From contig CAUYUJ010000098.1 of the NCBI GenBank assembly GCA_963575745.1, positions 1-64,000 on the forward strand: a stretch of DNA of 64,000 nucleotides. The letters are read 5' to 3'. Positions 2,966 to 51,820 of this stretch are shown here, one piece after another. The DNA is from Prorocentrum cordatum. Lineage: Eukaryota. A model generated the notes under the pieces. The model did not search any database, had not been told where the DNA came from, and saw only the letters and a list, made by a program, of their open reading frames with translations. The stretch's first letter is position 1. The number at the start of each line of letters is the position of its first letter. The position numbers and the translations under genes were made by a program.

Positions 2966-2999
2966 TGATAGGACAACTCACACTCACAAGCAGGTTAGT

Positions 3000-21275: not shown

Positions 21276-21283
21276 CCCTGCTG

Positions 21284-21857
21284 AAAATGTGGCCCAGGAA
21301 TGGGAGTTCTGGGAAGTCGAAGAGCACAAAGTTGCCTACAGTTGGCTACGGGCATTCAAAATGTGGCCCGGGACTGGAGTTCTGGGAACTCGAAGAGCAC
21401 GAAGTGGCCTACAGTTGGCTCCGGGCATTCAAAATGTGGCCCGGGAATGGAGTTCTGGGAACTCGAAGAGCACGAAGTGGCCTACAGTTGGCTCCGGGCA
21501 TTCAAAATGTGGCCCGGGAATGGAGTTCTGGGAACTCGAAGAGCACGAAGTGGCCTACAGTTGGCTCCGGGCATCCAAAATGTGGCCCGGGAATGGAATT
21601 CTGGGAACTCGAAGAGCACGAAGTGTGTGACTGTTGCATCCGGCCCTCCAGAATGTGGCCCGGGAATGGAGTTCTGGGAACTCGAAGAGCACGAAGTGTG
21701 TGACTGTTGCATCCGGTTATTCTAAAGGTGGCCCGGGAATGGCGTTCTGGGATCTCGAAGAGCACGAAGTGTGTGACTGTTGCATCCGGTTATTCAGAAT
21801 GAGCCTGGGAATGGAGTTCTGGGAAGTCGAAGAGCACGAAGTGTGTGACTGTTGGTG
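21284..21857 (+). repeat. 73-bp tandem repeat, present in all six family-A copies
   Basis: Unit AAAATGTGGCCCGGGAATGGAGTTCTGGGAACTCGAAGAGCACGAAGTGGCCTACAGTTGGCTCCGGGCATTC (period 21431 to 21504); other arrays at about 23017-23520, 27345-27765, 31610-32070, 35826-36180 and 39687-40112. Confidence 0.96.
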
Positions 21858-22300
21858 AAAAACGAGTTCGGCACAGGCCCGCCCGGCAACTCCCAACACC
21901 TGCCCGGACCCCCCTGTGGAGTGATCTGTGAGCTCTTTTGACACTACTAGAAACCTATCAGTCTTCGCTGTTAGGTAAATACGTTATGCCGACATATAAT
22001 TGAATCGTGCATATGATCATTCCCGTGACATGGAAGCAATAATGAAATTGGCGCGAGCAGAAACAATATACGTTCGGAACGCACGCGCAAACCTGGAAAA
22101 GGGTAAGTATGATATTTTCCGGCACATGTTTCTACGGAATTCTTTACGTCACAAAAAAGGGAACATACAAAAATATGCAATGTCATTATGTGCAGGGAGC
22201 AGGCTATTCTGAACATTCAACATTCATTGAAACTGTTCACAGAAAGCATTTCGTTGACCGCATCCCTTGAAGGCCGTCAAATTCCAAGAATAGAAAAAAA

Positions 22301-23660
22301 AATATCCCGGCAAAGCAACCTAACAGCGATGTGTAGAAGCATATATGGAAGCATTCCCCTTAAGATTCAGATGAGAATCCAGTTGTAGAGTTCTGCTGTT
22401 CTCGCAGTCGCAGTCGCATTCGCGATGACAGTCGCAGCGGCAACGGCAGTCGCAGTCACAGCCTCAGCCTCAGCCTGCCTCAGCCTCAGCCTCAGCCTGC
22501 CTCAGCCTCAGCCTGCCTCAGCCTCAGCCTCTGCCTGCTTCAGCCTCAGCCTCAGTCTGCCTTCAGCCTCGGCCTCAGCCTCGGCCTGCCTCAGCCTCAG
22601 CCTGCATCAGCCTCAGCCTCAGCCTCAGCCTGCCTCAGCCTCAGCCTCAGCCTGCCTCAGCCTCAGCCTCTGGTGCCTCAGCCTGCCTCAGCATCAGCCT
22701 GCCATACCCCCTAAAGCCTCACCTCAGCCTCACATCAGCCTATCCTCACATCAGCCTGCCCTCAACGTCTGCCTCCAGCCTGCTCAGCAAAGTCTGCCTT
22801 CGCCTCACCTCACCTCAGCCTGCTCACATCCGCCTAGCCTCAGCCTCAGCCCTCAGCCCACCTAGCCTCATCCTCAGCCGTCCTCCGCGTCTGCCTCCAG
22901 CCTGCCTTCAGCCCTCGCCTCGCCTCAGCCTGCCTCAGCCTCATCAGCCTCAGCCTGCCTGCCTCAGCCTCAGCCTCAGCATCAGCATCACCATTCTCAG
23001 CCTCTGCATCAGCATCAAAATGCGGCCCGGGAATGGAATTCTGGGAAATCGAAGAGCACGAAGTGGCCTACAGTTGGATCCGGGCATTCAAAATGTGGCC
23101 CGGGAATGGAGTTCTGGGAACTCGAAGAGCACGAAGTGGCCTACAGTTGGCTCCGGGCATTCAAAATGTGGCCCGGTAATGGAGTTCTGGGAACTCGAAG
23201 AGCACGAAGTGGCCTACAGTTGGCTCCGGGCATCCAAAATGTGGCCCGGGAATGGAGTTCTGGGAAATCGAAGAGCACGAAGTGGCCTACAGTTGGCTCC
23301 GGGCAACCAAAATGTGGCCCGGGAATGGAGTTCTGGGAACTCGAAGAGCACGAAGTGGCCTACAGTTGGCTCCGGGCATTCAGAAGGTGGCCCGGGAATG
23401 GAGTTCTGGGAGGTCGAAGAGCACGAAGTGGCCTACAGTTGCAATCCGGCCCTCCAGAATGTGGCCTGGGGAGTGAGTTTTCCTGGGGAAGTCGAAGAGC
23501 ACGAAGTGTGGTGACTGTTTGAGAAAAAACGAATGTGCACAGGCCCCGCGGGCCACTCCGGCAAGCGACCGAGCCCGGACCCCGCCTGTGGGGAGTGACT
23601 TGGTGAGCTGCTTTTATATCCAGCTAAATACATATGCGCGTGAGGCGCGCAGCTTTAGGA
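22301..23660 (-). mobile_element. Family A copy 2 (non-coding; CCTCAG tract plus 73-bp array; degenerate right terminus)
   Basis: Left terminus TATCCCGGCAAAGCAACCTAACAGCGA intact; right end noisy and abuts copy 3. Confidence 0.7.
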
Positions 23661-23662
23661 GT

Positions 23663-26600
23663 AATTATCCCGGCAAAGCAACCTAACAGCGATGTGTAGG
23701 AGCATATCTGGAAGCATTCCCCTAAAGATTCAGATGATAATCCAGTTGTAGAATTCTGCTGTTCTCGCAGTCGTAGTCGCATTCGCGATGACAGTCGCAG
23801 TGGCAAACGGCCAGTCGCAGTCACAGACCTCAGAGCGCGAGCCGGCCTCAGCCTCAGCCTCCGCCTGCCTCAGCCTCAGCCTGGCCTCCAGCCTCAGCCT
23901 CAAAGCTGCCTGCAAATCCTCACATCATCTGCTCAGCTTCGGCCTCAACCTCAGACTGCTCAACCTCAGCCTGCATCAGCCTCAGCCTCAGCCTCACCTG
24001 CCTCAGCATCAGCCTGTGCCCACTAGCTACAGCCTCAGCCTCAGTCCTGCTCTGCCTCAGCCTCACCTGCATTCAGGCCTCAGACCTCATCCCTGCGTCA
24101 GCTCGGCCTCAGCCTCTAGCCTGCCTCCTTGCCTCACCTCAGCCATGAAAAAATTCAGCAATCGCACGAAAATCAACCCAGCATGCCATGGACAAAGCGC
24201 TGAATGTACACCGATGTGTTCGACGACTGCGTATGTAATGATGTGACGATATACAGACTGAGCCCTTCGTGAATGTCTACATGTTTTACTGACGCCTACA
24301 AACGGCGCTGACGTGTGTGTGAAAAGTGTCCGCGCAGCAAAAGCCGGCGAAGCGTGCAGACAGCCAGCTGCAAAAGGTTGCGAGCGGCTCTTGGAAGACG
24401 TTAACGGAACGGAGCTACGGTGTCTGAAAACAATGGCATCGAAGCGAAGAGCCTCGGAGCCCTGCAGCCTGAGAAACACCGCAGGAACTCGCATACTGAA
24501 AAGGAATGCATTGCAAACCGCACGTTGCGAACCCTGCAGGCTGAGAAGCACCGCAGGATGTCGCATGCTGAAAAGCACTTGTACTGCAGAGCGCAGGCTG
24601 CGATACCTGCAGGCTGAGAAGCACCGCAGGAACTCGCATGCTTTCGAACACTACTGCTCGAGACCGCAGCTGGAGAGCGGCAGACCGCAGGCTGAGAAGC
24701 ACCGCGGGCAGAGAGACTTGCAAAACTCAGTTGTCCTGATCGTCTTGGAGGAAGTCACGCCAGTCCGGCGGCTGCCAAGAATCGATGATGCGCCTGGAGC
24801 CACCGCCCGTGCTGCCGCCGATGTCCAGGTAGTCGCCATCGCCCCTGAACAGACGGCCGTGCCCGCGCGCCAGAATCGCTTGGTTGCGGATTTGAAGCAG
24901 CGCTCCGCTCTCAAACATCTGCAACACGTCCTGCTGCCTGCGCGTGAAGTTCGGCTTTGCCTGGCCAGCCTGGGCAGACAGATATAGGGAAAGCCGCTCC
25001 CCCACGTTGTAGCGCGCGATGGCCTCGGCCTTCTGGTGGTGCAGCCGGCGCCGCTGTTGCCGCAGAGCTTCCTCGGGAACTGCTGCATCACGGCCCTCAC
25101 TGTGATCAGCTTGCAACGCTTGCGTTAACCAATCAACGTCGAAGCGCCCTGAGGAGGCCAGCGCCTCCCAGATCTGTTTAGTACCGGCCACACGTTGCAA
25201 ATGGCGATGCCACCGCTTACGCTTCTGGTCTTTCGCAAACTTGGCGACGCTACCCAGACCTGCACCCTTGGCCTGGCCACCTTTTCCCGCAGGCTGAGAA
25301 GCACCGTGAGAACCTTTCTTACCGCCTGGCCCTTTGTTAGGACCCTGCGGAACCGCATGGCCCCCTTGTGGCGCAGACTTGCCTCTCGCTTTTCCCTTTT
25401 CGACATCCCGTCCCTGAAGCGCACGCTGCTGCCGCGACTGCTCGTACTGGTCGCGAGCTACTCAGACCAATTCCTGGCGCTCAGGCTCCGTGAGAACGTA
25501 GCGCACGTCGTCGATGTTCTTGCTCCGCAGAAAGTCATGTCGAAAAACAAACAAAATAAAAATAAGAAACAAATTGGAAAAAATAAAAAAAAAAAAAGAA
25601 AAAAAACAAAGAAAGTAAAAAAAAACATTAAATAAGAAAATAATGAACACCACCTCCCACCCCCCAAAACAACCAAACAATAACACCCTAGAGCTTAAGG
25701 ACAGAGAGAAATGCTCGGCCAAGTCCACCTCCTGAGACGAGACGCAAAGGCCGTGTCATATTCCGAGCCAGGCTGAGGAGCGCCAGCTGGATCAGTGTCC
25801 GCCGGCTCCGTGGACTTCCTCTTTTTGAAAAGCAAGAGACTGAGATGATGGAGGACTTTCGGATCGTACTCCTCGTCGTGGTTACCTGTCGTCCCAAAGC
25901 TTCCTCAGCTCCCTGTGCAAGTCGCCCGCGCGATTCTGAACGACATCCTCGACGTAGTCGGGATCACCCGGTGAAGTCGGTGAAAGCGGAGGAGCAGAAC
26001 TCGGCGACCGATCCCAATGCACAGAAGACTCGCGGTCCGCCTGTACGCTGACGTCGGCGTCGGAGACGTTTTCGACGACAATTTTCCGCCTCTTGCTCTC
26101 CCCAGGCTGAATAGCACCAGGGAGAGTGAGCACAACCGCCACCGCATCGTGTGCGTCGTTGCGCATGCCACGATCCGTAAAAGACGCGCCAACGGCAATG
26201 GAGCAGAAACGGGCGACTGCTCCGCAGACCGCGACGTGGTCGCCTTTGAGGTCGGCCGGAGTGGCATGGACCTCCCATACCTTCTCGTCGTTCTGCTCGC
26301 GCTGGTAAGCCTCCCGCGCCTCCTGGAAAGTGAGGTTGTCGTCGCCGACTACAAGCACAACGACTGCCACGTTTAGATTCTCAAGAATCTTGGCCAGGCC
26401 GTCCAGGTGCAAGCGGAGATGGCGAACTGTCCGCTTTCGAGTCTGGATGCTCGGCGGTTTCTTGCCGCACACAATGTGCATGTTGGCGATCACCACGTGG
26501 AACTTGTCATGGCCTGGTTTGTTCACCTCAAAATGTGAAATAACAGCATCAATATCTCGGCCGCTAGGAGGCCTGTAAACTTTGCTGTCTTCGCACAGAG

Positions 26601-27885
26601 TCAGTTCCGCAGGCTGAGAATCCACCGCGACCGCCAGAGAGTCAAGTAAGTTGTCGACCTCCAAGAAGCGAATGCCATCACCGAAAGGCTTACTGAGGAT
26701 GTCTGTCACGAGATCCCTGCTCGGCGAAAGCCTTCACGGAACGCACCGACCTCGCAGCCACAGACCATATCAGCATCAGCGGTCTCCACTATCTTGGCGC
26801 ACAACCTTCCGAAATTAGCGCAGTGAGCGGCCGCCTGCTTACCAGTCATCATGCCCTGCTCGAACCCGAAATTGAACGAGGCGACCGTGAAAGACGCAGG
26901 CTGCACAGCGCCAGAACCAGGCGTCTGTCCACCTTCCTCCGCAGGCTGAGACGCACCGCGAGGCGGCGCAGGCTGAGAAGCACCGCGAGGCGGCGACACT
27001 TCGGACGAGCCTCGCGGAGCAGAGGCTGCGGATGAACGTTGGACATGGGGGTACGGCCAGGGGAACGCCATTGCAATCAAAACTCAGTGGACTGCAGTGA
27101 ATGAAAGTAGTGGCCAATTGAATGCAGAGGACTGCAGTGTCACTAGCAAGTCCTGAACCAAACACAGCTGTGGCGGAAGGAATATGAAGCGTCTGGCTAT
27201 TCAAAATGTTGCCCGGCAATGTCCTCCTCCTCCTCCTCCTCCTCCTCCTCGTCCTCCTCCTCCTCTTCCTCCTCCTCCTCCTCCTCCTCCTCCTCCTCCT
27301 CCTCCTCCTCCTGGTAGTCCTCCCCCTCCCCTCCTCCTCCTGGTAGCCCAGGAATGGGAGTTTTGGGAACTCGAAGAGCACGAAGTGGCCTACAGTTGGC
27401 TCCGGGCATTCAAAATGTGGCCCGGGAATGGAGTTCTGGGAACTCGAAGAGCACGAAGTGGCCTACAGTTGGCTCCGGGCATTCAAAATGTGGCCCGGGA
27501 ATGGAGTTCTGGGAAGTCGAAGAGCACGAAGTGGCCTACAGTTGGCTCCGGGCATCCAAAACGTGGCCCGGGAATGGCGTTCTGGGAACTCGAAGAGCAC
27601 GAAGTGTGTGACTGTTGCATCCGGCCCCCCAGAATGTGGCCCGGGAATGGCGTTCTGGGATGTCGAAGAGCACTTTGTGTGTGACTGTTGCATCCGGCCC
27701 CCCAGAATGTTGCCTGGGAATGGAGTTCTGGGAAGGCGAAGAGCACGAAGTGTGTGACTGTTGGTGAAAAACGAGCCCGGCTCATGCCGCCCGGAAACGC
27801 CCCAACACCTGCCCGGACCCCCCTGTGGAGTGATCTGTGAGCTCTTTTGAGTCAACTAGAAACCTATCAGTCTTCGCTGTTAGGT
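23663..27885 (-). mobile_element. Family A copy 3 (about 4.2 kb, ORF-bearing)
   Basis: Both termini present; colinear with copies 4-6. Confidence 0.85.
24727..27071 (-). pseudogene. EEP-domain ORF, copy in A3 (frameshifts and A-rich insert as assembled)
   Basis: ORF pieces 26706..27080, 25882..26709 and 24727..25200 match the other copies. Confidence 0.75.
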
Positions 27886-28117
27886 AAAAACCTAAACCCA
27901 AGGCAAAAGCATCCATGGAATTCGACTAAAGGTTGCGCCCCTCTGTCCGCGAATCGGCCATAGAGAATTTTTCATCACAAGGTGAGCAATCAAGCAAAAG
28001 AACTTCATGAACAACTCCCTTTTTGCGCTGCTGCACCACATCAAATTTCGTTCTACGATGCTATGGGAGCGTCGAACAAGGATTCGCATAAGAATTTTGC
28101 ATGGCCCGCGTGAAAGA

Positions 28118-31100
28118 AAATTATCCCGGCAAAGCAACCTAACAGCGATGTGTAGGAGCATATCTGGAAGCATCCCCCTTAAGATTCAGATGAGAATCCA
28201 GTTGTAGAGTTCTGCTGTTCTCGCAGTCGTAGTCGCATTCGCGATGACAGTCGCAGTGGCAACGGCAGTCGCAGTCACAGCCTCAGCCTCAGCCTGCCTC
28301 AGCCTCAGCCTCAGCCTGCCTCAGCCTCAGCCTGCCACAGCCTCAGCCTCAGCCTGCTTCAGCCTCAAAAAAAAATGAGAGACAAAAAAACAAAAAAAAG
28401 AACCAGAAAGCAATCAGTCTCTTTGCCTTCAGCTTCGCCTCACCTCAACTGCCTCAACCTACAGCCTGCAATTCACTCAGCCTCAGCCCTCAAGCCTGCT
28501 CAGCATCAGCCTGCCTCAAACTTCAGGCTTTCAGCCTCAGCCTAGCTCTGCCTCAGCCTCAGCCTTCTTCAGCCTCATCCTCAGTCCGCCGTCGCCTCGG
28601 CACTCCCTCAGCTCCTCAGCCTCAGCCTGCATGCAGCCTCAGCCTCACACTAAGCCACCCAGCAAGAAGACAAAAAGCCGCTGAAAAACACCGAATGTGT
28701 CGACGACTGCGAATGTAATGATTGTGACCGATATAAAAAAAAAAAAATAAAAAAAAACCGACTGAGCCCTTCGTGAATGTCTACATGTTTTTCTGACGCC
28801 TACAACGGCGCTGACGTGTGTGTGAAAAGTGTCCGCGCAGCAAAAGCCGGCGAAGCGTGCAGACAGCCAGCTGCAAAAGGTTGCGAACGGCTCTTGGAAG
28901 ACGTTTACGGAACGGAGCTACGGTGTCTGAAAACATTGGCATCGAAGCGAAGAGCCTCGGAGCCCTGCAGCCTGAGAAACACCGCAAGAACTCGCATACT
29001 GAAAAGGAATGCATTGCAAACCGCACGTTGCGAACCCTGAAGGCTGAGAAGCACCGCAGGATGTCGCATGCTGAAAAGCACTTGTACTGCAGAGTCCGCC
29101 AGGCTGCGAAACCTGCAGGCTGAGAAGCACCGCAGGAACTCGCATGCTTTCGAACACTACTGCTCGAGACCGCAGCTGGATAGCGGCAGACCGCAGGCTG
29201 AGAAGCACCGCGGGCAGAGAGACTTGCAAAACTCAGATGTCCTGATCGTCTTGGAGGAAGTCACGCCAGTCCGGCGGCTGCCAAGAATCGATGATGCGCC
29301 TGGAGCCACCGCCCGTGCTGCCGCCGATGTCCAGGTAGTCGCCATCGCCCCTGAACATACGGCCGTGCCCGCACGCCAGAATCGCTTGGTTGCGGATTTG
29401 AAGCAGCGCTCCGCTCTCAAACATCTGCAACACGTCCTGCTGCCTGCGCGTGAAGTTCGGCTTTGCCTGGCCAGCCTGGGCAGACAGATGAGGGAAAAGC
29501 CGTCCCCCTCGTTGTAGCCGCCGATGGCCTCGCCTTCTGGCGGTGCTGCCGGCGCCGCGTTTGCCGCAGAGCTCCAGCGGGAACTGCTGCAATCACGAGC
29601 TTCACTGTGATCACCTTGCAACGCATGGCGTTAACCAATCATACGTCCGAAAAAAAAAAGAAAATAAAAAAAAAACAAAAAAAAAAAAAAAAATAAAGAA
29701 GCGCCCTGAGAAGGCAGCACCTCCCAGATCTGTTTGGTACCGGCCACACGTTGCAAATGGCGATGCCACCGCTTACGCTTCTGGTCTTTCACAAACTTGG
29801 CGACGCTACCCAGACCTGCACCCTTGGCCTGGCCACCTTTTCCCGCAGGCTGAGAAGCACCGTAGAACCTTTCTTACCGCCTGGCCCTTTGTTAGGACCC
29901 TGCGGAACCGCATGGCCCCCTTGTGGCGCAGACTTGCCTTTCGCTTTTCCCTTTTCGATATCCCGTTCCTGAAGCGCACGCTGCTGCCGCGACTGCTCGT
30001 ACTGGACGCGAGCTACTCTGACCAATTCCTGGCGCTCAGGCTCCGTGAGAACGTAGCGCATGTCGTCGATGTTCTTGCTCCGCAGAAAGTCATGTCGAAG
30101 CTTATGGACAGAGAGAATGGCTCGGCCAGTCTCCTCCTGAGACGCAAAGGCCGTGTCATATTCCGAGCCAGGCTGAGGAGCGCCAGCTGGATCAGTGTCC
30201 GCTGGCTCCGTGGACTTCCTCTTTTTGAAAAGCAAGAGACTGAGAGGATGGAGGACTTTCGGATCGTACTCCTCGTCGTACCTGTCGTCCCAAAGCTGCC
30301 TCAGCTCCCTGTGCAAGTCGTCCGCGCGATTCTGAACGACATCCTCGACGTAGTCGGAATCACCCGGTGAAGTCGGTGAAAGCGGAGGAGCAGAACTCGG
30401 CGACCGATCCCAATGCACAGAAGACTCGCGGTCCGCCTGTACGCTGACGTCGGCGTCAGAGACGTTTTCGACGACAATTTTCCGCCTCTTGCTCTCCCCA
30501 GGCTGAACAGCACCAGGGAGAGTGAGCACAACCGCCACCGCATCGCGTGCGTCGTTGCGCATGCCACGATCCGTAAAAGACGCGCCAACGGCAATGGAGC
30601 AGAAACGGGCGACTGCTCCGCAGACCGCGACGTGGTCGCCTTTGAGGTCGGCCGGAGTGGCATGGACCTCCCATACCTTCTCGTCGTTCTGCTCGCGCTG
30701 GTAAGCCACCCGCGCCTCCTGGAAAGTGAGGTTGTCGTCGCCGACTACAAGCACAACGACTGCCTCGTTTAGATTCTCAAGAATCTTGGCCAGGCCGTCC
30801 AGGTGCAAGCGGAGATGGCGAACTGTCCGCTTTCGAGTCTGGATGCTCGGCGGTTTCTTCCCGCACACGATGTGCATGTTGGCGATCACCACGTGGAACT
30901 TGTCATGGCCTGGTTTGTTCACCTCAAAATGTGAAATAACAGCATCAATATCTCGGCCGCTAGGAGGCCTGTAAACTTTGCTGTCTTCGCACAGAGTCAG
31001 TTCCGCAGGCTCAGAAGCACCGCGGAACCCGCAGAGAGTCAAGTAGTTGTCGACCTCCAAGAAGCGAATGCCATCACCGAAAGGCTTACTGAGGATCTCT

Positions 31101-32191
31101 GTCGCGTTGATCCCTGCTCGGCGAAAGCCTTCACGGAACGCACCGACCTCGCAGCCACAGACCATATCAGCATCAGCGGTCTCCACTATCGTGGCGCACA
31201 CCCTTCCGAAGTTAGCGCAGTAAGTGGCCGCCTGCTTACCAGTCATCATGCCCTGCTCGAACCCGAAATTGAACGAGGCGACCGTGAAAGACGCAGGCTG
31301 CACAGCGCCAGAAACCAGCGCGTTCCTGTCCACCTTCCCTCCGCAGGCAGAGAAGCACCCGCGAACCGCGCAGGCTGAGAAAGCACCGCGAGTCGGCGAC
31401 ACACGGACGTCGCCACGTCGAGCTAGAGGCTGCGGATGAGGGTTGGAACATGGTGTTAACCGGCCAGGGGAACGCCATTGCAATCAAAACTCAGTGGACT
31501 GCAGTGAATGAATGTAGTGGCCAATTGAATGCAGAGGACTGCAGTGTCACAAGCAAGTCCTGAACCAAACACAGCTGTGGCGGAAGGAATATGAAGCGTC
31601 TGGCTATTCAAAATGTTGCCCGGCAATGGAGTTCTGGGAACTCGAAGACCAGGAAGTGGACTAGAGTTGGCTCTGGGCATCCAAAATGTAGCCCAGGAAT
31701 GGAGTTCTGGGAACTCGAAGAGCACGAAGTGGCCTACAGTTGATGACCCCCGCATGCTCCGCAAACCAAAATTGTGGCCCGGGAATGGAGTTCGGAAAAT
31801 GGAAAGAACACCGAATGGCCTACAGTTCGCTCCGGGCATCCAAATGTGCGGGAATGGGGGGGTCCCCCCCCCTAGACCCCCCCCGTTCTGTGATGTAGCC
31901 GTCGCTCGAAGAGGATACATGATTGCCTCCGCCCCCAGAATGAGGCCCGGGAATGGCGTTCTGGGATGTCGAAGAGCACGAAGTGGCCTACAGTTGCATC
32001 CGGCCCCCCAGAATGTGGCCTGGGAATGGAGTTCTGGGAAGTCGAAGAGCACGAAGTGTGTGACTGTTGGTGAAAAACGAGCCCGGCTCATGCCGCCCGG
32101 AAACGCCCCAACACCTGCCCGGACCCCCCTGTGGAGTGATCTGTGAGCTCTTTTGACACTACTAGAAACCTATCAGTCTTCGCTGTTAGGT
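28118..32191 (-). mobile_element. Family A copy 4 (about 4.1 kb, ORF-bearing)
   Basis: Termini TTATCCCGGC at 28121 and CGCTGTTAGGT ending at 32191. Confidence 0.85.
29233..31478 (-). pseudogene. EEP-domain ORF, copy in A4 (564-aa open stretch; NDAHD changed to NDARD)
   Basis: ORF 29789..31483 spans the whole EEP-like domain; C-terminus continues in 29233..29592. Confidence 0.75.
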
Positions 32192-32309
32192 AATCAATTC
32201 AAACGGGAACGCAAACCGGGCTCAGATTCCTGTAAACACCTTACAAAAATGCCGAAAACAAGAAATGTTTTAAATAACCAAAATACTTTCAATCATTAAA
32301 AAATGACTT

Positions 32310-35300
32310 AAATTATCCCGGCAAAGCAACCTAACAGCGATGTGTAGGAGCATATCTGGAAGCATTCCCCTTAAGATTCAAATGAGAATCCAGTTGTAGA
32401 GTTCTGCTGTTCACGCAGTCGTAGTCGCATTCGCGATGACAGTCGCAGTGGCAACGGCAGTCGCAGTCACAGCTCACCTCAGCCGGCTCAGCCTCAGCCT
32501 CCGCCTGCCTCAGCCTCAGCCAGCCTCAGCCTCAGCCGCAGCTCTTCAGCCTCAGCATCAGTCCTGCCTCAGCCTTCGCCCCAGGCCTCAGCCTGCCTCG
32601 GCCTCAGCCTTGCACTCAGCCTCAATCCTCAGACCTCGGCCTGCCTATCCCCAAAAAGCATCACCTGCCTCAGCGCCTCAGCCTCAGCCTCAAGCCTGCC
32701 ACAGCCTCGCCTCACCTGCTCAGCCGCAGCCTCATCTGCCGTCGCCTCTGCCTCAGCCTCAGCCTGCCTCAGCCTCAGCCTGCATCAGCCTCAGCCTCAG
32801 CACGAAGCAACCCAGCTAGAAGGACAAAGCGCTGAATGTACACCGATGTGTTCGACGACTGCGTATGTAATGATGTGACGATATCCAGACTGAGCCCTTC
32901 GTGAATGTCTACATGTTTTTCTGACGCCTACAAACGGCGCTGACGTGTGTGAGAAAATTGCCCGCGCAGCAAAAGCCGGCGAAGCGTGCGGGAGCTCGCA
33001 TGCTGAGACAGACTACGTCTGCAGACCGCCAGCTGCAAAAGGTTGCGAGCGGTTCTTGGAAGATGTTTACGGAACGGAGCCACGGTGTCTGAAAACATTG
33101 GCATCGAAGCGAAGAGCCTCGGAGCCCTGCAGCCTGAGAAACACCGCAGGAACTCGCATACTGAAAAGGAATGCATTGCAAACCGCACGTTGGGAACCCT
33201 GCAGGCTGAGAAGCACCGCAGGATGTCGCATGCTGAAAAGCACTTGTACTGCAGAGCGCAAGCTGCGAAACCTGCAGGCTGAGAAGCACCGCAGGAACTC
33301 GCATGCTTTCGAACACTACTGCGCGAGACCGCAGCTGGAGAGCGGCAGACCGCAGGCTGAGAAGCACCGCGGGCAGGGAGACTTGCAAAACTCAGATGTC
33401 CTGATCGTCTTGGAGGAAGTCACGCCAGTCCGGCGGCTGCCAAGAATCGATGATGCTCCTGGAGCCACCGCCCGAGCTGCCGCCGATGTCCAGGTAGTCG
33501 CCATCGGCCCTGAACAGACGGCCGTGCCCCAACGCCAGAATCGCTTGGTTGCGGATTTGAAGCAGCGCTCCGCTCTCAAACATCTGCAACACGTCCAGCT
33601 GCCTGCGCGTGAAGTTAGGCTTTGGCTGGCCAGCCTGGGCAGACAGATGGCGGGAAAGCCGCTCCCCCTCGTTGTAGCGCGCGATGGCCTCGGCCTTCTG
33701 GTGGTGCAGCCGGCGCCGCTGTTGCCGCAGAGCTTCCTCGGGAACTGCTGCATCACGGCCCTCACTGTGATCAACTTGCAACGCTTGCGTTAGCCAATCA
33801 ACGTCGAAGCGCCCTGAGAAGGCCAGCACCTCCCAGATCTGTTTGGTACCGGCCACACGTTGCAAATGGCGATGCCACCGCTTACGCTTCTGGTCTTTCA
33901 CAAACTTGGCGACGCTACCCAGACCTGCACCCTTGGCCTGCCACCTTTTCCCGCAGGCTGAGAAGCACCGTGAGAACCTTTCTTACCGCCTGGCCCTTTG
34001 TTAGGACCCTGCGGAACCGCATGGCCCCCTTGTGGCGCAGACTTGCCTCTCGCTTTTCCCTTTTCGACATCCCGTTCCTGAAGCGCACGCTGCTGCCGCG
34101 ACTGCTCGCACTGGTCGCGAGCTACTCTGACCAATTCCTGGCGCTCAGGCCCCGTGAGAACGTAGCGCATGTCGTCGATGTTCTTGCTCCGCAGAAAGTC
34201 ATGTCGAAGCTTAAGGACAGAGAGAATGGCTCGGCCAGTCTCCTCCTGAGACGCAAAGGCCGCGTCATATTCACCAGGCTGAGGAGACGCTGAGTAAAAA
34301 ATATAACAAACAAAACACCATACAAGACTTAAAATAAGACTTAAAAAAATAAAAACCATCAGAAAAAAATAAGAGAAAAAACAAAAAAAAAATCAGAATA
34401 AAATAAGTCAGCTGGATTAAGCGCTCCGCTGGCTCCGTGGACTTCCTCTTTTTGAAAAGCAAGAGACTGAGATGATGGAGGACTTTCGGATCGTACTCCT
34501 CGTCGTACCTTTCGTCCCAAAGCTGCCTCAGCTCCCTGTGCAAGTCGTTCGCGCGATTCTGAACCACATCCTCGACGTAGTCGGGATCACCCGGTGAAGT
34601 CGGTGAAAGCGGAGGAGTAGAACTCGGCGACCGATCCCAATGCACAGAAGACTCGCGGTCCGCCTGTACGCTGACGTCGGCGTCGGAGACGTTTTCGACG
34701 ACAATATTCCGCCTCTTGCTCTCCCCAGGCTGAATAGCACCAGGGAGAGTGAGCACAACCGCCACCGCATCGTGTGCGTCGTTGCGCATGCCACGATCCG
34801 TAAAAGACGCGCCAACGGCAATGGAGCAGAAACGGGCGACTGCTCCGCAGACCGCGACGAGGTCGCCTTTGAGGTCGGCCGGAGTGGCATGGACCTCCCA
34901 GAGCTTCTCGTCGTTCTGCTGGCGCTGGTAAGCCTCCCGCGCCTCCTGGAAAGTGAGGTTGTCGTCGCCGACTACAAGCAGAACGACTGCCTGGCTCAGA
35001 TTCTCAAGAATCTTTCCCACGCAGTCCAGGTGCAAGCGGAGATTGCGAACTGTCCGCTTTCGAGTCTGGATGGTCGGCGGTTTCTTGCCGCACACGATGT
35101 GCATGTTGGCGATCACCACGTGGAACTTGTCATGGCCTGGTTTGTTCACCTCAAAATGTGAAATAACAGCATCAATCTCTCGGCCGCTAGGAGGCCTGAA
35201 AACTTTGCTGTCTTCGCACAGAGTCAGTTCCGCAGGCTGAGAAGCACCGCGGAACCCCCAGAGAGTCAAGTAGTTGTCGACCTCCGAGAAGCGAATGCCA

Positions 35301-36300
35301 TCACCGAAAGGCATACTGAGGATCTCTGTCACGTTGATCCCTGCTCGGCGAAAGCCTTCACGGAACGCACCGACCTCGCAGCCACAGACAATATCAGCAT
35401 CAGCGGTGTCCACTATCGTGGCGCACACCCTTCCGAAGTTAGCGCAGTGAGTGGCCGCCTGCTTACCAGTCATCATGCCCTGCTCGAACCCGAAATTGAA
35501 CGAGGCGACCGAGAAAGACGCAGGCTGCACAGCGCCAGAACCAGGCGTCTGTCCACCTTCCTCCGCAGGCTGAGAAGCACCGCGAGGCGGCGCAGGCTAG
35601 AAGCACCGCGAGGCGGCGACACTTCGGACGAGCCTCGCGGAGCAGAGGCTGCGGATGAACGTTGGATATGGGGGTACGGCCAGGGGAACGCCATTGCAAT
35701 CGAAACTCAGTGGACTGCAGTGAGTGAATGCAGTGGCACGATTGAATGCAGTGGACTGCAGTGTCACTAGCAATTCCTGAACCAAACACGGCTGTGGCGG
35801 AAGGACTACGAAGCGTCTGGCTATTCAAAATGTGGCCCGGGAATGTAGTTCTGGGAACTCGAAGACCAGGAAATGGCCTACAGTTGGCTCCGGGCATCCA
35901 AAATGTGGCCCGGGAATGGAATTCTGGGAACTCGAAGAGCACGAAGTGTGTGACTGTTGCATCCAGCCCTCCAGAATGTGGCCCGGGAATGGCGTTCTGG
36001 GATGTCGAAGAGCACGAAGTGTGTGACTGTTGCATCTGGTTATTCTAAATGTGGCCCGGGAATGGCGTTCTGGGATCTCGAAGAACACGAAGTGTGTGAC
36101 TGTTGCATCCGGGTATTCATAATGTGGCCTGGGAATGGAGTTCTGGGAAGTCGAAGAGCACGAAGTGTGTGACTGTTGGTGAAAAACGAGCCCGGCTCAT
36201 GCCGCCCGGAAACGCCCCAACACCTGCCCGGACCCCCCTGTGGAGTGATCTGTGAGCTCTTTTGAGACCACTAGAAACCTATCAGTCTTCGCTGTTAGGT
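32310..36300 (-). mobile_element. Family A copy 5 (about 4.0 kb, ORF-bearing)
   Basis: Termini at 32313 and 36300; fused directly to copy 6. Confidence 0.85.
33392..35694 (-). pseudogene. EEP-domain ORF, copy in A5 (interrupted as assembled)
   Basis: ORF pieces 35473..35694, 34271..35530, 33898..34359 and 33392..33901. Confidence 0.75.
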
Positions 36301-39300
36301 AAATTATCCCGGCAAAGCAACCTAACAGCGATGTGTAGGAGCATATCTGGAAGCATTCCCCTTAAGATTCGGATGAGAATCCAGTTGTAGAATTCTGCTG
36401 TTCTCGCAGTCGTAGTCGCATTCGCGATGACAGTCGCAGTGGCAACGCAGTCGCAGTCGCAGCCTCAGCCTCAGCCTGCCTCAGCCTCAGCCTCAGCCTG
36501 CCTCAGCATCAGCCTGCCTCAGCCTCAGCCTCAGCCTGCTTCAGCCTCAGCATCAGTCTGCCTCCGGCCCACTTCCCCCCCCCCTCGGCCTCACCTCAGC
36601 TCATCGCCTCAAGCCTGCATCAGCCTCAGCTCACCTCAGCCTGCCTCAGCATCAGCTGCCTCAGCCTCAGCTCAGCCTCACCTGCCTCTGCCTCAGCCTC
36701 AGCCTGCTTCACTCACCTCAGTCCTGCCGTCGCTCGCCCCACCTCAGCCTGTCCTCAAGCCTCAGCCTGCATCAGCCTCAGCTCACACAACGACCAGCTA
36801 AAGGACAAAGCGCTGAATGTTCACCGATGTGTTCGACGACTGCGTATGTAATGATGTGACGATATACAGACTGAGCCCTTCGTGAATGTCTACATGTTTT
36901 TCTGACGCCTACAAACGGCGCTGACGTGTGTGAGAAAATTGTCCGCGCAGCAAAAGCCGGCGAAGCGTGCGGGAGCTCGCATGCTGAGACAGACTACGTC
37001 AGCAGACAGCCAGCTGCAAAAGGTTGCGAGCGGCTCTTGGAAGATGTTTACGGAACGGAGCTACGGTGTCTGAAAACATTGGCATCGAAGCGAAGAGCCT
37101 CGGAGCCCTGCAGCCTGAGAAACACCGCAGGAACTCGCATACTGAAAAGGAATGCATTGCAAACCGCACGTTGCGAACCCTGCAGGCTGAGAAGCACCGC
37201 AGGATGTCGCATGCTGAAAAGCACTTGTACAGCAGAGCGCAGGCTGCGAAACCTGCAGGCTGAGAAGCACCGCAGGAACTCGCATGCTTTCGAACACTAC
37301 TGCTCGAGACCGCAGCTGGAGAGCGGCAGACCGCAGGCTGAGAAGCACCGCGGGCAGAGAGACTTGCAAAACTCAGATGTCCTGATCGTCTTGGAGGAAG
37401 TCACGCCATTCCGGCGGCTGCCAAGAATCGATGATGCGCCTGGAGCCACCGCCCGTGCTGCCGCCGATGTCCAGGTAGTCGCCATCGCCCCTGAACAGAC
37501 GGCCGTGCCCGCACGCCAGAATCGCTTGGTTGCGGATTTGAAGCAGCGCTCCGCTCACAAACATCTGCAACACGTCCTGCTGCCTGCGCGTGAAGTTCGG
37601 CTTTGCCTGGCCAGCCTGGGCAGACAGATATAGGGAAAGCCGCTCCCCCTCGTTGTAGCGCGCGATGGCCTCGGCCTTCTGGTGGTGCAGCCGGCGCCGC
37701 TGTTGCCGCAGAGCTTCCTCGGAAACTGCTGCATCACGGCCCTCACTGTGATCAGCTTGCAACGCTTGCGTTAACCAATCAACGTCGAAGCGCCCTGAGA
37801 AGGCCAGCACCTCCCAGATCTGTTTGGTACCGGCCACACGTTGCAAATGGCGATGCCACCGCTTACGCTTCTGGTCTTTCACAAACTTGGCGACGCAACC
37901 CAGACCTGCACCCTTGGCCTGGCCACCTTTTCCCGCGGGCTGAGAAGCACCGTGAGAACCTTTCTTACCGCCTGGCCCTTTGTTAGGACCCTGCGGAACC
38001 GCATGGCCCCCTTGTGGCGCAGACTTGCCTTTCGCTTTTCCCTTTTCGATATCCCGTTCCTGAAGCGCACGCTGCAGCCGCGACTGCTCGTACTGGTCGC
38101 GAGCTACTCTGACCAATTCCTGGCGCTCAGGCTCCGTGAGAACGTAGCGCATGTCGTCGATGTTCTTGCTCCGCAGAAAGTCATGTCGAAGCTTAAGAAC
38201 AGAGAGAATGGCTCGGCCAGTCTCCTCCTGAGACGCAAAGGCCGTGTCATATTCCGAGCCAGGCTGAGGAGCGCCAGCTGGATTAGTGTCCGCTGGCTCC
38301 GTGGACTTCCTCTTTTTGAAAAGCAAGAGACTGAGATGATGGAGGACTTTCGGATCGTACTCCTCGTCGAACCTGTCGTCCCAAAGCTGCCTCAGCTCCC
38401 TGTGCAAGTCGTTCGCGCGATTCTGAACGACATCCTCGACGTAGTCGGGATCACCCGGTGAAGTCGGTGAAAGCGGAGGAGTAGAACTCGGCGACCGATC
38501 CCAATGCACAGAAGACTCGGCGTCCGCCTGTACGCTGACGTCGGCGTCGGAGACGTTTTCGACGACAATCTTCCGCCTCTTGCTCTCCCCTGGCTGAATA
38601 GCACCAGGGAGAGTGAGCACAACCGCCACCGCATCGTGTGCGTCGTTGCGCATGCCACGATCCGTAAAAGACGCGCCAACGGCAATGGGGCAGAAACGGG
38701 CGACTGCTCCGCAGACCGCGACGTGGTCGCCTTTGAGGTCGGCCGGAGTGGCATGGACCTCCCATACCTTCTCGTCGTTCTGCTGGCGCTGGTAAGCCTC
38801 CCGCGCCTCCTGAAAAGTGAGGTTGTCGTCGCCGACTACAAGCAGAACGACTGCCTGGTTTAGATTCTCAAGAATCTTGGCCAGGCCGTCCAGGTGCAAG
38901 CGGAGATGGCGAACTGTCCGCTTTCGAGTCTGGATGGTCGGCGGTTTCTTGCCGCACACGATGTGCATGTTGGCGATCACCACGTGGAACTTGTCATGGC
39001 CTGGTTTGTTCACCTCAAATGTGAAATAACAGCATCAATCTCTCGGCCGCTAGGAGGCCTGTAAACTTTGCTGTAATCCAGAAACAGTTCCGCAGGCTGA
39101 GAAGCACCGCGGAACCCCCAGAGAGTCAAGTAGTTGTCGACCTCCGAGAAGCGAATGCCATCACCGAAAGGCTTACAGAGGATCTCTGTCACGTAGATCC
39201 CTGCTCGGCGAAAGCCTTCACGGAACGCACCGACCTCGCAGCCACAGACAATATCAGCATCAGCGGTCTCCACTATCGTGGCGCACAACCTTCCGAAGTT

Positions 39301-40235
39301 AGCGCAGTGAGTGGCCGCCTGCTTACCAGTCATCATGCCCTGCTCGAACCCGAAATTGAACGAGGCGACAGTGAAAGACGCAGGCTGCACAGCGCCAGAA
39401 CCAGGCGTCTGTCCACCTTCCTCCGCAGGCAGAGAAGCACCGCGAGGCGGCGCAGGCTGAGAAGCACCGCGAGGCGGCGACACTTCGGACGAGCCTCGCG
39501 GAGCAGAGGCTGCGGATGAACGTTGGACATGGGGGTACGGCCAGGGGAACGCCATTGCAATCAAAACTCAGTGGTCTGCAGTGAATGAATGCAGTGGCTC
39601 GATTGAATGCAGAGGACTGCAGTGTCACTAGCAAGTCCTGAACCAAACACAGCTGTGGCGGAAGGAGTATGAAGCGTCTGGCTATTCAAAATGTGGCCCG
39701 GGAATGGAGTTCTGGGAACTCGAAGACCAGGAAGTGGACTAGAGTTGACTCCGGGCATCCAAAATGTGGCCCGGGAATGGAGTTCTGGGAAATGGAAGAG
39801 CACGAAGTGGCTTACAGTTGGCTCCGGGCATCCAAAATGTGGCCCGGGAATGGAGTCCTGGGAAATGGAAGAGCACGAAGTGGCCTACAGTTGGCTCCGG
39901 GCATCCAAAATGTGGCCCGGGAATGGAGTTCTGGGAAATGGAAGAGCACGAAGTGGCCTACAGTTGGATCCGGCCCCCCAGAATGTGGCCCGGGAATGGC
40001 GTTCTGGGATGTCGAAGAGCACGAAGTGGCCTACAGTTGCATCCGGCCCCCCAGAATGTGGCCTGGGAATGGTGTTCTGGGAAGGCGAAGAGCACGAAGT
40101 GTGTGACTGTTGGTGAAAAACGAGCCCGGCTCACTGCCGCCCGGCAACTCCCAACACCTGCCCGGACCCCCCTGTGGAGTGATCTGCTGCTCTCTTTTGA
40201 TCCCACTAGAAACCTATCAGTCTTCGCTGTTAGAT
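36301..40235 (-). mobile_element. Family A copy 6 (about 3.9 kb, ORF-bearing)
   Basis: Junction GCTGTTAGGT|AAATTATCCC at 36300/36301; right end CGCTGTTAGAT at 40235. Confidence 0.85.
37373..39555 (-). CDS. EEP (APE/DNase I-like) domain protein with unknown C-terminal region, about 727 aa after repairing one homopolymer frameshift near 39017
   Basis: Ordered motifs TVASFNFG, DIVCGCEVG, VVIANMHI, LVVGDDN, KGDHVAV and NDAHDAVAV. The only lesion is CTCAAAT where the other three copies have CTCAAAAT. Confidence 0.75.
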
Positions 40236-43200
40236 AATCATTGGTTCTCCTTAGGTTTTTGAAGGTTTTTTGCGTTTTCTTCTTTTCGGCCTTCCGACGG
40301 CCCAAGAGGCCCCCAAGATCGCCCAAGAGGCCTCCAAGAAGGCCCTATGACGGCCCAAGGGCCCCCCAAGACAGCCCCAAGAGCGCCCCAAGACGGCCCA
40401 AGAGGCCTCCAAGACGCCCAACATGGCCTCCAAGACGGCCCTGAAGCGCCCCAAGAGGGCCCCAAGACGGCCCAGAGAGGCCCCCAAGACGACTCCAGAC
40501 GGCGTCAGACGGACCAGGAACGCCCTAAGACGGCCAAAGAGACCCCCAGGAAGCCCCCAAAGGCCCCAAAGAGGCCCAAGGAGGCCCCCAAGATGCCTCC
40601 AAGAGGCCTCGAAGAGGCCCCCAAGAAGCCCCCAACAGACCCCAAGGGTGCCCCAAGAGACTCCTAACAACCCTCATCCTCCTACTCTATTTCTTCCTCT
40701 TCCTCTTCCTGTTCATAATCATTCTCTCCCATGTTCCCCGAAAGCTTTCCAAACCGACTCGGGGAACTCATGGTCCGATAGCTTGGCCAAGCTCTAGTCC
40801 AACTTTCGGCCACATCGGCGTTTCCAAAAAGGCAGGGGGCGGCGGTGATTCGCCGTAGGCGTCTTCGATCCGCCGCCCCCTGTGGTCTTGCCACAGGGGT
40901 GCACGGCGTGCTGGATGTTCCAGGTTTTGGTTTTGGTTCTTTTTCTAAAAGAACTCCCCAGTGGGCTTCGGCCCGTCCCGCCGGCCACCCGCAAGTTTCC
41001 GAAAATCCATCTGTCAATGCCTTTGTTGCCCCAACTTGGCCCAAGATGGCCTCCAAGACGGCCAAGATGGCCAAAGATGGCCTCCAAGATGCTTCCAAGA
41101 CGGCCAAGATGGCCTCCAAGACGGGTAAGATGGCTCCAAGATGCACCCAAGACGGCCCAAGATGGCCTCAAGATGGTCTAAGACGGCAAAAGGGCCCCGC
41201 AAAGGCCTCCAAAGACGGACAAGGAGCCAGGCCAAGACCGCCCAAGATGCCTCAAAGGACCAGGCCCCCGAAAGCGCCCCAAGAGGCCCCCGACTGCAAA
41301 CAAGAAGGGCCCCCAAGAGACAGGCTCCACAGCAGTGCTCGGACGTCGCCACCTACGAACCCACCAAGATGGCCGAAGTTGGCTCGAAGCTGGCCCAAGA
41401 CGGCCCACGAGGCCCCCAAGAGGGCCTCCAAGACGCCCAAGATGGCCTCCAAGACGGCCCCGAAGCGCCCCAAGAGGGCCCCCAGTCGGCCCCGAAAGGC
41501 CCCCAAGACGGCTCCCGACGGCGTCGGACGTGCCAGGAACCCACCAAGATGGCCGAAGTTGGCTCGAAGCTGGCCCAAGACGGCCCACGAGGCCCCCAAG
41601 AGGGCCTCCAGGAAGGCCAGAAGAGGCCGAAAACCTTGATGTTCCTAAGGTTTTTGACGGATTTAGACATTTACTTCTTTTCGGCCTGCCGACGGCCCGA
41701 GGCGGCCCCAGAGCCCCCAAAGATCGCCCAAAGATCGCCCAAGAGGCCTCCAAGACGGCCAAGATGACCTTCAAGATGCCCACGTGTTCCCCGAAGGCTT
41801 TCCAAACCGATTCGGGGAACACATGGTCCGATGGCTTGGCAGGTCTGGCCTCAACGTTCGGCCACGTCGGCGCTTCCAAAAAGGCAGGGGGCGGCGGTGA
41901 TTCGCCGTAGGCGTCTTCGATCCGCCGCCCCCTGTCGCTTCAGCAAAGGGGTGCCCGGCGTGCTGAATCCTCTCGGTTTTGGTTTTGGTTCTTTTTCCAA
42001 AAGAACTCTCCAAGTGGGCTCCGGCGCGTCCCGCCGGGGCCGCGGAAGGCCCGGAAACGAGCTCAACGACCGCAAAAAATCCTCCAAGATGGCTCAAGAA
42101 ACGGCCGTTTCGCTCGGGACATCCTCGAAAAATCGCTAACATGGCCCAAGATGGCCTCCAAGTCCGCCCAAGATGGTCCAAGACGGCCTCCAAGACGGCC
42201 CAAGAGAGTCGAAGATGGTCCACGACGGCCCCAGAGGCCCCCCAGAGGCCTCCCAGACGGCCCAAGAGGCCTCCAAGAGGTCCTCCAGGAGGGCCCGAAG
42301 AGGCCAAAATCATTGATTTTCCTTAGGTGTTTGAAGGATTTTGGAAATTTGCTTCTTCTCGGCATTCCGACAGCTCAAGACGGCCCAAGAGACTCCCAAG
42401 ATCGCCCAAGAGGCCCCCAAGAGGGCCCCATGACGGCCCAAGTGGCCTCCAAGTTGGCCCCCAAAGGGCCCCAAGACGGCCCAAGAGGCCTCCAACACGC
42501 CCAAGACGGCCTCCAAGACGCCCAAGATGACCTCCAAGACGGCCCCGAAGCGCCCCAAGAGGGCCCCAAGTCGGCCCAGAGAGGCAACCCAAGACGGCTC
42601 CCGACGGCGTCAGACGTGCCAGAAACCCACCAAGATGGCCGAAGTTGGCTCGAAGCTGGCCCAAGACGGCCCAAGAGGCCCCCAAGAGGGCCTCCACGAA
42701 GGCCAGAAAAAGCCAAAAACCTTGATTTTCCTAAAATGTTCGACGGATTTAGACATTTCCTTCTTTTCGGCCTTCCGACGGCCCGAGACGGCCCAAGAGG
42801 CCTCACAGATCGCCGAAAGATCGCCCAAGAGGCCTCCAAGACGGCCAAGATGACCTTCAAGATGCCCACGTGTTCCCTCAAGGCTTTCCAAACCGATTCG
42901 GGGAACACATGGTCCGATGGCTTGGCAGGTCTGGCCTCAACGTTCGGCCACATAGGCGCTTCCAAAAAGGCAGGGGGCGGCGGTGATTCGCCGTAGGCGT
43001 CTTCGATCCGCCGCCCCCTTGTGATTTATCACAGGGGTGCCTGGCGTGCTGGATCCTATCGGTTTTGGTTTTGGTTCTTTTCCAAAAGAACTCCCCCTGG
43101 GGCTCCAGCGCGTCCCGCCGGCTACCCGGAAAAGCTCTCAAGGAGCTCAATTCCCCAATCTTTCGCTCAAGATGGCCCAAGATGGCCTCCAAGATGGCCA

Positions 43201-51747: not shown

Positions 51748-51820
51748 CTGCAGATGAGCACGAAAAGAACTAGAGACGCCCGAGGGGAGCCCTGGGAGGC
51801 CAGCGACGGCCCCTTGGAAC

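Follow-up and report, generated by a model that had tools for sequence, protein, structure and literature searches.

A head-to-tail array of units with Helentron-like ends and a divergent EEP nuclease gene in Prorocentrum cordatum: a probable new lineage of mobile elements

Autonomous Helentron and Helitron2 elements encode a Rep (HUH) plus PIF1-like helicase protein; elements of this group have short (12–15 bp) asymmetric or subterminal inverted repeats (IRs), 2–4 nt from the 5' end and close to the 3' end, as well as a palindrome or stem-loop towards the 3' end, insert between T and T, and are accompanied by non-autonomous partners with the same ends and an internal microsatellite or tandem repeats. 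The mobile elements Helitron2, Helentron and HINE are characterized by subterminal IRs, T-runs at their boundaries, the lack of a target-site duplication, an internal microsatellite or satellite, and head-to-tail copies; in the HINEs of mites, the 3' IR lies 38–60 nt from the end [both according to the accessible parts of Thomas et al., PMC4067079]. From Symbiodinium microadriaticum, a dinoflagellate, a Rep/helicase protein (RepHel) without an AP-endonuclease (APE) domain has been reported in an element of Helitron2-like structure [according to the accessible parts of Heringer and Kuhn 2021, PMC8788227]. Here, we describe an array of repeat units from Prorocentrum cordatum (assembly GCA_963575745.1, contig CAUYUJ010000098.1, positions 1 to 64,000 of the forward strand; this whole stretch of 64,000 nt is referred to as the window). 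Six head-to-tail copies of one repeat unit occupy ~20 kb (20288–40240), and the sole open reading frame (ORF) of the unit encodes a free-standing protein of ~700 aa with an EEP (endonuclease/exonuclease/phosphatase) domain as its N-terminus. No description of this family was found in the accessible parts of the dinoflagellate, Helitron and transposable-element literature, PMC12130899 and PMC11453091 included.

The unit is probably a new lineage of mobile elements. The reading that we prefer, and to which we give about an even chance, is that of a lineage of dinoflagellate mobile elements with a cryptic EEP nuclease as its own gene; it would probably spread by a Helitron-like single-strand route with RepHel provided in trans, and would be open to retroposition as well, the mechanism being inferred. 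Several features characterize the unit as a mobile or selfish element: its fixed ends are set in unrelated flanks, no target duplications were seen, ORF-less derivatives occur, the copies decay neutrally, a close relative is intact, and the end architecture is conserved across lineages.

Four co-oriented full units of 3.9–4.2 kb (u1–u4, 23663–40240) were delimited by self-BLAST of u4 and read-out of the junctions, with a pairwise DNA identity of 90.7–93.5% (pairwise alignment). Two shorter, ORF-less units (s-1 and s0, 20288–23662) are located upstream of u1; the 5' end of s0 is divergent and gives no match to the 5'-end 20-mer. The original prediction, made from the letters of the window alone, had placed four co-oriented units of about 4 kb with shared termini at 23663–40235; this is confirmed by both approaches and its coordinates agree with u1–u4, s-1 and s0 falling outside them. 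The units and the internal parts of u4 are as follows.

20288–21978, minus strand: s-1, ORF-less unit; both termini, (CCT)n microsatellite, 73-bp satellite, no gene; perfect 12-nt IR at 20307–20318 / 21965–21976.
22299–23662, minus strand: s0, ORF-less unit; canonical 3' terminus (3' 20-mer with 1 mismatch), (CAGCCT)n microsatellite, 73-bp satellite, divergent 5' end.
23663–27887, minus strand: u1, full unit; gene dead through 1 premature stop and 8 frameshifting indels, one of them an insertion of 148 nt.
28118–32196, minus strand: u2, full unit; gene dead through 1 stop and 14 frameshifting indels, with R in place of the catalytic H257; EEP domain in a single frame at 30473–31315.
32309–36302, minus strand: u3, full unit; gene dead through 4 frameshifting indels, one of them an insertion of 119 nt; IR at 32329–32340 / 36289–36300.
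36301–40240, minus strand: u4, full unit, least damaged; carries one 3-nt deletion and, near 39016, a private deletion of 1 nt; directly adjoins u3.
37373–39564, minus strand: ORF of u4 in two frames (39010–39564 and 37373–39013); ~730 codons allowing for a single frameshift.
39687–40101, no strand assigned: 73-bp satellite, ~5.7 copies, in the interval from 5' terminus to gene of u4; the satellite is present in every unit.
37107–37349, minus strand: repeats directly downstream of the stop codon, in which the 17-mer GGTGCTTCTCAGCCTGC occurs four times.
36460–36782, no strand assigned: (CAGCCT)n microsatellite of u4, flanked by the gene segment on one side and the 3' terminal region on the other.

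On the ORF strand, the order of a full unit is 5'-TT, 12-nt IR, 73-bp satellite, intronless ORF, repeats with a 17–20-nt motif, hexanucleotide microsatellite, partner IR, 19–20 nt, TTT-3'. Tracts of the 73-bp satellite are found at 21284–21843, 23015–23508, 27346–27752, 35826–36178 and 39687–40101. The satellite is probably a major satellite of the carrier genomes, since its summed contig depth in two public sequencing runs (40,000–260,000 in X1 and X7) is far over that of the gene part. Its interpretation as a row of spliced-leader relics was rejected (more than 5 errors against the leader query, a sequence taken to be the spliced leader). An Rfam scan of 19500–41000 gave no match, and a search for tRNA genes found none.

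The 5'-end 20-mer occurs five times and the 3'-end 20-mer six times, all on the minus strand and all within 20288–40240 (0 expected by chance), and unit homology breaks off at the identical two points in every copy. One example of each terminus is given.

36283–36302, minus strand: 5' terminus (u3); TT, then the 12-nt subterminal IR ACCTAACAGCGA.
36301–36340, minus strand: 3' terminus (u4); TCGCTGTTAGGT, then 19–20 nt finishing in TTT.

The two arms of the IR (ACCTAACAGCGA / TCGCTGTTAGGT) are 100% complementary in u1, u3 and s-1, with one mismatch in u4, and are located 3–14 nt from one unit end and 21–32 nt from the other. Units begin with TT and finish with TTT; in one relative of the gene (locus L016, see below) TTTTT precedes the homologue of the 5' terminus. 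No flanking direct repeat or target-site duplication was seen at any unit when the junctions were inspected by eye. Compared with Helentron, HINE (DINE-1-like) and Helitron2 elements, as far as the accessible parts of the cited source describe them, the unit has in common the 12-nt subterminal IR, 2 nt from its 5' end and with a partner near its 3' end; the T-runs at the boundaries without a target-site duplication being seen; the internal microsatellite and tandem repeats, which fill much of the unit; ORF-less derivatives, apparently far commoner than coding copies; and the head-to-tail copies. Unlike Helentron and Helitron2 elements, it has no Rep/helicase gene, its sole ORF encoding a stand-alone EEP protein, and no supported 3' stem-loop. 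The Helentron-type ends that had been predicted are thus recovered in part, namely the subterminal IR, T-runs, absence of a visible target-site duplication, internal repeats and head-to-tail arrangement; the 3' stem-loop is not.

Between the units, three unique spacers are found.

21979–22298, no strand assigned: unique AT-richer spacer between s-1 and s0 (320 bp), GC 0.40.
27888–28117, no strand assigned: unique spacer between u1 and u2 (230 bp), GC 0.46.
32197–32308, no strand assigned: unique spacer between u2 and u3 (112 bp), GC 0.33.

The spacers of 112, 230 and 320 bp have no match elsewhere in the window, and their GC content (0.33–0.46) compares with 0.57 for the array; at the u3/u4 junction the spacer is 0 bp. 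Because the sequence between units differs each time, the array is not a simple duplicated block, and simple tandem duplication of one block was rejected, the spacers being unique and unlike each other.

Exactly four copies of the ORF were detected in the window by tblastn, all on the minus strand. The majority-rule frame, built from columns present in at least three of the four copies, runs open through 731 codons to a terminal stop, and the ancestral gene was therefore intact. A consensus of about 727 aa starting at MAFPWP had been proposed in the original prediction; the length is close and MAFPWP lies inside the frame, with the true start codon uncertain because the intact relative P0001 begins further in. 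All four copies are broken (8, 14, 4 and 1 frameshifting indels in u1, u2, u3 and u4, respectively, counts that depend on the alignment; a premature stop in u1 and u2), and the genes of u1–u4 in the window are dead relics. The ratio of nonsynonymous to synonymous substitution rates (dN/dS), which had been suggested as a check, is 1.11–1.35 in pairwise comparison of the four copies; the local gene copies have therefore diverged by neutral decay.

Parts of u4 were found in 20 run rows from 14 studies, among them three organisms and several marine metagenomes; no RNA run is listed among them. The frameshift of u4 is private because contigs of four public runs aligned to u4 carry an extra A behind 39016 (depth 7.57 of 7.57 in X19, 22.5 of 22.5 in X5, 845 of 845 in X7, and 1203 of 3815 in X1). 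In X7, single contigs cover the ORF at a depth of 590–1,180, compared with 6 for one low-depth contig, and another contig joins 36656 to 39887, which corresponds to an ORF-less form. Summed contig depth of the terminal regions and satellite is ~6–30x that of the ORF (X1, X7), an excess that is a hint of high copy only, because depth is not copy number. In X19, a contig departs from homology into unrelated sequence at 36304, exactly at the unit end.

These junctions and copies bear on the possibility, in our view an unlikely one, that the array is an ordinary dinoflagellate tandem gene array, its ends being conserved intergenic control sequences, the array degenerating, and its spacers being later insertions at a fragile junction. 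Genes of dinoflagellates are frequently arranged in unidirectional tandem arrays [according to the accessible parts of PMC11453091]; three co-oriented, diverged paralogues, two of them intact, stand without these ends at locus L001, one of the relatives treated below; the family is large, with conserved catalytic residues as expected for a working host enzyme; and the layout of the whole unit is kept across lineages. A host array fits poorly, however, with unrelated spacers of 112, 230 and 320 bp that are all inserted at the same TTT/TT point while one junction is spacerless, with ORF-less units that retain both ends, and with the X19 contig leaving homology exactly at the unit end. The neutral decay of all four local genes also speaks against it, as does the 12-nt IR formed by the two ends, for which a control region has no need; the excess of the terminal regions over the gene in X1 and X7 (~6–30x in summed depth) adds a hint only.

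Two parts of the protein were modelled separately.

30473–31315, minus strand: EEP domain, 281 aa, basis of the structure model (u2); pLDDT 91.8; 285 PDB matches at E<=0.001; TDP2 at Z 19.5.
37376–38452, minus strand: C-terminal 359 aa (u4), helical; motifs KRKRWHRHLQR..GTKQIWE..F.GRFD and GHGRL...DIGGSTGG, conserved in the family.

The model of the N-terminal 281 aa (pLDDT 91.8, pTM 0.89, from a 43-sequence alignment) shows the four-layer alpha/beta sandwich of the EEP superfamily. Foldseek returned 285 PDB matches at E<=0.001, with mouse Tdp2 as the best (5.7e-11) and a Bacteroides EEP protein, Nocturnin and DNase I next in order. VIA-align returned 292 chains at Z>=8, the best being TDP2 (4fva_C; Z 19.5, root-mean-square deviation 2.9 A over 212 aa), with Nocturnin at Z 19.0, CNOT6L at Z 17.8 and DNase I at Z 17.1; because the top families are near-tied, the substrate class is unreadable from these Z values. 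Catalytic and metal-binding residues (N, E, H, D-x-N, D, D-x-H) are kept in 80–97% of the aligned members with a residue at the column: N16 in 24/30, E56 in 28/36, H148 in 34/38, D193 in 37/39, N195 in 34/39, D227 in 38/40, D255 in 34/42 and H257 in 38/42. The six motifs from which the EEP fold had been predicted are all present in the order given, on positions conserved in the family, and the assignment of the N-terminal half to this fold is borne out by the model, Foldseek, VIA-align and the catalytic conservation. Compared with TDP2, Nocturnin/CCR4 (CNOT6L) and DNase I, the domain has the same fold and the same catalytic positions at a sequence identity of just 10–16%, and differs from TDP2, Nocturnin and DNase I in being fused to a unique C-terminal region.

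Sequence models do not recognize the domain: PF03372 (Exo_endo_phos) of Pfam has no match at E<=1 in the four window ORFs, no Pfam family matches at E<=0.1 in 12 relatives, phmmer and family-profile searches of the PDB sequences retrieved no EEP chain, and language-model annotation gave weak leads only (score 0.83). On the strength of the structure model, the ORF probably encodes an EEP-fold enzyme, a Mg-dependent phosphodiesterase or nuclease, which has diverged too far to be caught by sequence models. The model of the C-terminal 359 aa (pLDDT 79.1) consists of helices, two small hairpins and a disordered linker; its best matches are at E 0.45 in the PDB (Foldseek), at Z 6.1 with VIA-align (helical hairpins only) and at E 0.75 in BFVD, and Atlas gave no usable match. 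Taken as a whole, the modelled ~350 aa would have no known fold, which agrees with the earlier description of this half as unrecognised sequence.

In an exhaustive HMMER search, the family comprises 607 cluster representatives (clusters at 50% identity) at E<=0.001; their number falls to 273 at E<=1e-10 and to 44 at E<=1e-30. Among them is P0001, an intact relative of 695 aa that is 95% identical to the window protein. A scan of metagenomes yielded 25 related loci; a scan of viral contigs yielded no relative of the protein. Exact-match searches for the unit ends in the related loci found none; tolerant local alignment recovers the ends in two loci, L005 and L016. In L005, a microsatellite comes after the gene and is followed in turn by CGCTGTTAGGGTGCTTTGCTGGGGTAATT, which equals 26 of 29 nt of the 3' terminus, and a homologue of the 5' terminus begins 3 bases on, so that this head-to-tail junction matches the u3/u4 junction. 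In L016, unrelated DNA is followed by TTTTT, a homologue of the 5' terminus, tandem repeats, a microsatellite, a spliced-leader relic and the gene. Local-alignment scores are 43 (3' end of L005), 33 (5' end of L005) and 42 (5' end of L016), with maxima over ten shuffled queries of 28 and 25. At the outermost pair of the IR, the window has A:T and L005 has C:G; in a consensus fold of the three sequences, one of five pairs is compensatory and two pairs are broken in L016, which is weak evidence.

The window protein is 49% identical to that of L005 and 45% identical to that of L016. Ends and gene have therefore been associated across a deep divergence, which counts against recent capture and favours the gene as the unit's own and not recent cargo; between the two options left by the original prediction, an undescribed rolling-circle class or a cargo enzyme, the ends of L005 and L016 likewise favour the element's own gene. 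Capture would mean that an abundant non-autonomous shell of Helitron2/Helentron type, made up of ends, satellite and microsatellite, acquired a host EEP gene, or was struck by its retrocopy, and then amplified the passenger; we consider this quite unlikely. It would account for the shell without the gene (s-1, s0 and the 36656–39887 joint of X7), apparently far more abundant, for the gene without the shell in L001, for a gene segment whose length of ~2.9 kb nearly equals that of the contig of intact P0001 (2,990 nt), for the leader relic of L016 between the 5' part of the shell and the gene, and for the neutral evolution of the copies, as in captured genes. It would, however, have to invoke long co-travel or repeated capture for the homologous ends that flank the gene in L005 (49%) and L016 (45%), and the order of 5' end, tandem repeats, gene, microsatellite and 3' end is kept in all three lineages.

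The family is also marked at the nucleotide level by a motif of ~20 nt, cgcGGTGCTTCTCAGCCTGCg; for the recurring peptide GASQPA, the coding sequence uses a single fixed word, GGTGCTTCTCAGCCTGC. In the window, 29 copies (at most 2 mismatches) are found at 24464–39468, all on the ORF strand and all in u1–u4 (0.03 expected), with four copies per unit in the non-coding repeats right after the stop codon. Across 25 relatives (loci in the range L001–L024), the coding strand carries 76 copies of the motif and the opposite strand a single one (at most 3 mismatches); of the 25 copies inside coding sequence, 24 share the reading frame that gives G-A-S-Q-P. Beyond the stop codon, the first copy follows after ~15–35 nt in L007, L015, L016, L017 and u4 of the window. 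In a logo of 69 sites, the motif is a discrete element of ~20 nt with unconserved flanks, and it is conserved in nucleotides between genes whose proteins are just 33–60% identical. The pattern GA.QP has 207 occurrences in 167 family proteins, compared with 1.1 in shuffles, at positions that are non-homologous. The motif is accordingly regarded as a candidate cis signal, which might be bound by a protein, targeted by a small RNA or nicked; literature searches for the GASQPA peptide and for the DNA motif returned nothing relevant, and the exact 17-mer has seven single matches in viral contigs, chance-like by a rough estimate.

Three observations on single loci are added. In L015 (606–897; 60% protein identity), the 3' untranslated region (UTR) contains a 213-nt tandem duplication, each copy with two exact 17-mers 62 nt apart, and this duplication resembles the motif-bearing repeats after the stop codon of the window units. 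In L010 (6272–7753, minus strand), an ORF of 494 aa from outside the family (no profile match) contains one copy of the motif on its sense strand (2 mismatches, GAPQPG). Because this unrelated ORF carries a sense-strand copy, the motif may not be private to the family. The N-terminal module of the same ORF, which contains AAYTLSEYIQYYG, recurs at the start of P0166 and inside P0025.

In long interspersed nuclear elements (LINEs) of the APE type, EEP nucleases drive target-primed reverse transcription. The APE-type endonuclease of non-LTR retrotransposons and the Rep/Hel/EN protein of Helentrons resemble the case described here in that an EEP-fold nuclease is carried on a repeated, probably mobile unit; unlike both, neither the ORF nor the unit contains a reverse transcriptase (RT) or RepHel. 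An animal-type LINE ORF2 N-terminus was rejected for lack of an RT. Of the traits of APE-type LINEs, an RT match, poly(A) and target-site duplications were not seen, while the 5' ends are complete and identical and the microsatellite is internal. A retroposon without an RT of its own, the EEP protein nicking the target as in LINEs and the mRNA of the unit being copied by an RT in trans, is a reading that we think improbable. Besides the role of EEP nucleases in target-primed reverse transcription, it could draw on the frameshifted copy of L016 with its leader relic, on the intronless genes, and on the sense-strand cis motif in the 3' UTR across the family. The window units, however, lack a leader relic, poly(A) and a target-site duplication; their 5' ends are complete and identical instead of truncated, and their ends form an IR; the microsatellite is internal, not terminal; and the EEP domain is not nearest to APE-type enzymes among the matches listed. 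No spliced-leader relic with up to 5 errors was found at the window units. The leader relic in L016 and the tandem paralogues in L001 resemble dinoflagellate retrogenes and tandem arrays; the window units, unlike dinoflagellate retrogenes, have IR ends and ORF-less derivatives and no leader relic.

Under the preferred reading of a lineage with its own nuclease gene, the unit would spread into T-rich DNA by a single-strand (rolling-circle) route like that of Helitron2 and Helentron elements, the EEP protein would supply nicking or end-processing, and the Rep/helicase would act in trans; family mRNAs might also be open to retroposition. The RepHel of S. microadriaticum is a candidate trans partner, since its element is Helitron2-like in structure and it has no AP-endonuclease domain [according to the accessible parts of PMC8788227]. 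In a bolder formulation, which we put forward tentatively and hold to be rather doubtful, the unit would be a 'split Helentron', that is, a dinoflagellate-specific lineage with an EEP nuclease, a helical domain of no detectable known fold and asymmetric Helitron2-like ends, in which the endonuclease module resides on its own element and acts in trans with the endonuclease-less RepHel elements reported from Symbiodinium, the 20-nt motif, spread over coding sequence and 3' UTR, serving as the cis signal for its own protein or for a small RNA.

A number of results weigh against the reading of a Helitron-like element with its own gene. No Pfam match to an RT, Rep or helicase was obtained in 30 window ORFs (the four of the array and 26 others of at least 200 aa), which gave only the FG-GAP gene described below and weak chance matches, nor on nine further ORFs of the relatives' contigs; the predicted free-standing nuclease without an RT, Rep or helicase partner holds within the window on this Pfam basis. 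APE1, ExoIII and L1-EN are absent among the matches listed (50 each for Foldseek and VIA-align), by which kinship is neither shown nor excluded; unlike that of Helentrons, the nuclease of the unit is not visibly of APE type among these matches, and the link to the Helentron APE endonuclease drawn in the original prediction is unsupported, the nearest structures being TDP2, Nocturnin, CCR4 and DNase I. The 3' IR of the unit is 19–20 nt from the end, unlike the 38–60 nt given for mite HINEs in the accessible parts of the cited source. As for hairpins, the last 50 nt of three units fold as DNA at -1.2 to -3.4 kcal/mol (z -0.22 to +1.18; 82–178 of 200 shuffles as good), and a 5' hairpin is no better than in shuffles (z -1.35 to -1.8; 10–24 of 200 as good), which is marginal.

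Further points of this kind come from the relatives. The 3' terminus is above controls in one of 25 and the 5' terminus in two of 25, the other 23 loci being at background; the missing ends in these 23 loci are weak evidence, because many contigs hold less than 600 nt beyond the gene. L001 (7,978 nt) contains, at 1432–7710, three co-oriented paralogues that are 37–41% identical to P0001, two of them intact ORFs (~700 aa); they have hardly any similarity in DNA and are ~580 and ~880 bp apart, with microsatellite-rich spacers; there are no unit-like ends between them, and the locus looks like an ordinary tandem gene cluster. Homologues without these ends, which had been named beforehand as evidence against the prediction, thus exist in most of the 25 relatives, L001 included, while L005 and L016 possess the ends. 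The frameshifted copy of L016 is a retrocopy: ~150 nt ahead of its first aligned residue stands a spliced-leader relic that differs from the 21-nt query by 1 mismatch; an RNA route therefore exists. A weak leader-like string was also seen right before the third paralogue of L001.

Dinoflagellate genomes are huge and repeat-rich, with most of their genes 'dark'; from the models presented here, one large dark family (607 clusters at 50% identity) would gain a predicted fold and a probable chemistry. The family is tied to a sharply bounded, apparently high-copy unit with rolling-circle-like ends. If this link is true, fusion to RepHel would not be needed for an endonuclease to act on behalf of a Helitron-like element, which would bear on the purpose of the Helentron endonuclease.

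Outside the array, an ORF with seven FG-GAP repeats (50500–52170, minus strand; Pfam E 7.7e-105) is built on a 165-bp tandem repeat at 50492–51572. A spliced-leader relic is located at 51821–51841 (minus strand; 2 mismatches to the leader query, 0 expected), within the upstream part of the FG-GAP stop-to-stop frame, and the ORF is probably a retroposed gene. Together with the relic of L016, it indicates dinoflagellates as carriers. The right flank of the array contains long degenerate repeats with periods of 90–355 bp (40296–47700, and again at 51950–54370), which encode plus-strand peptides rich in Pro, Lys, Ala and Gln.

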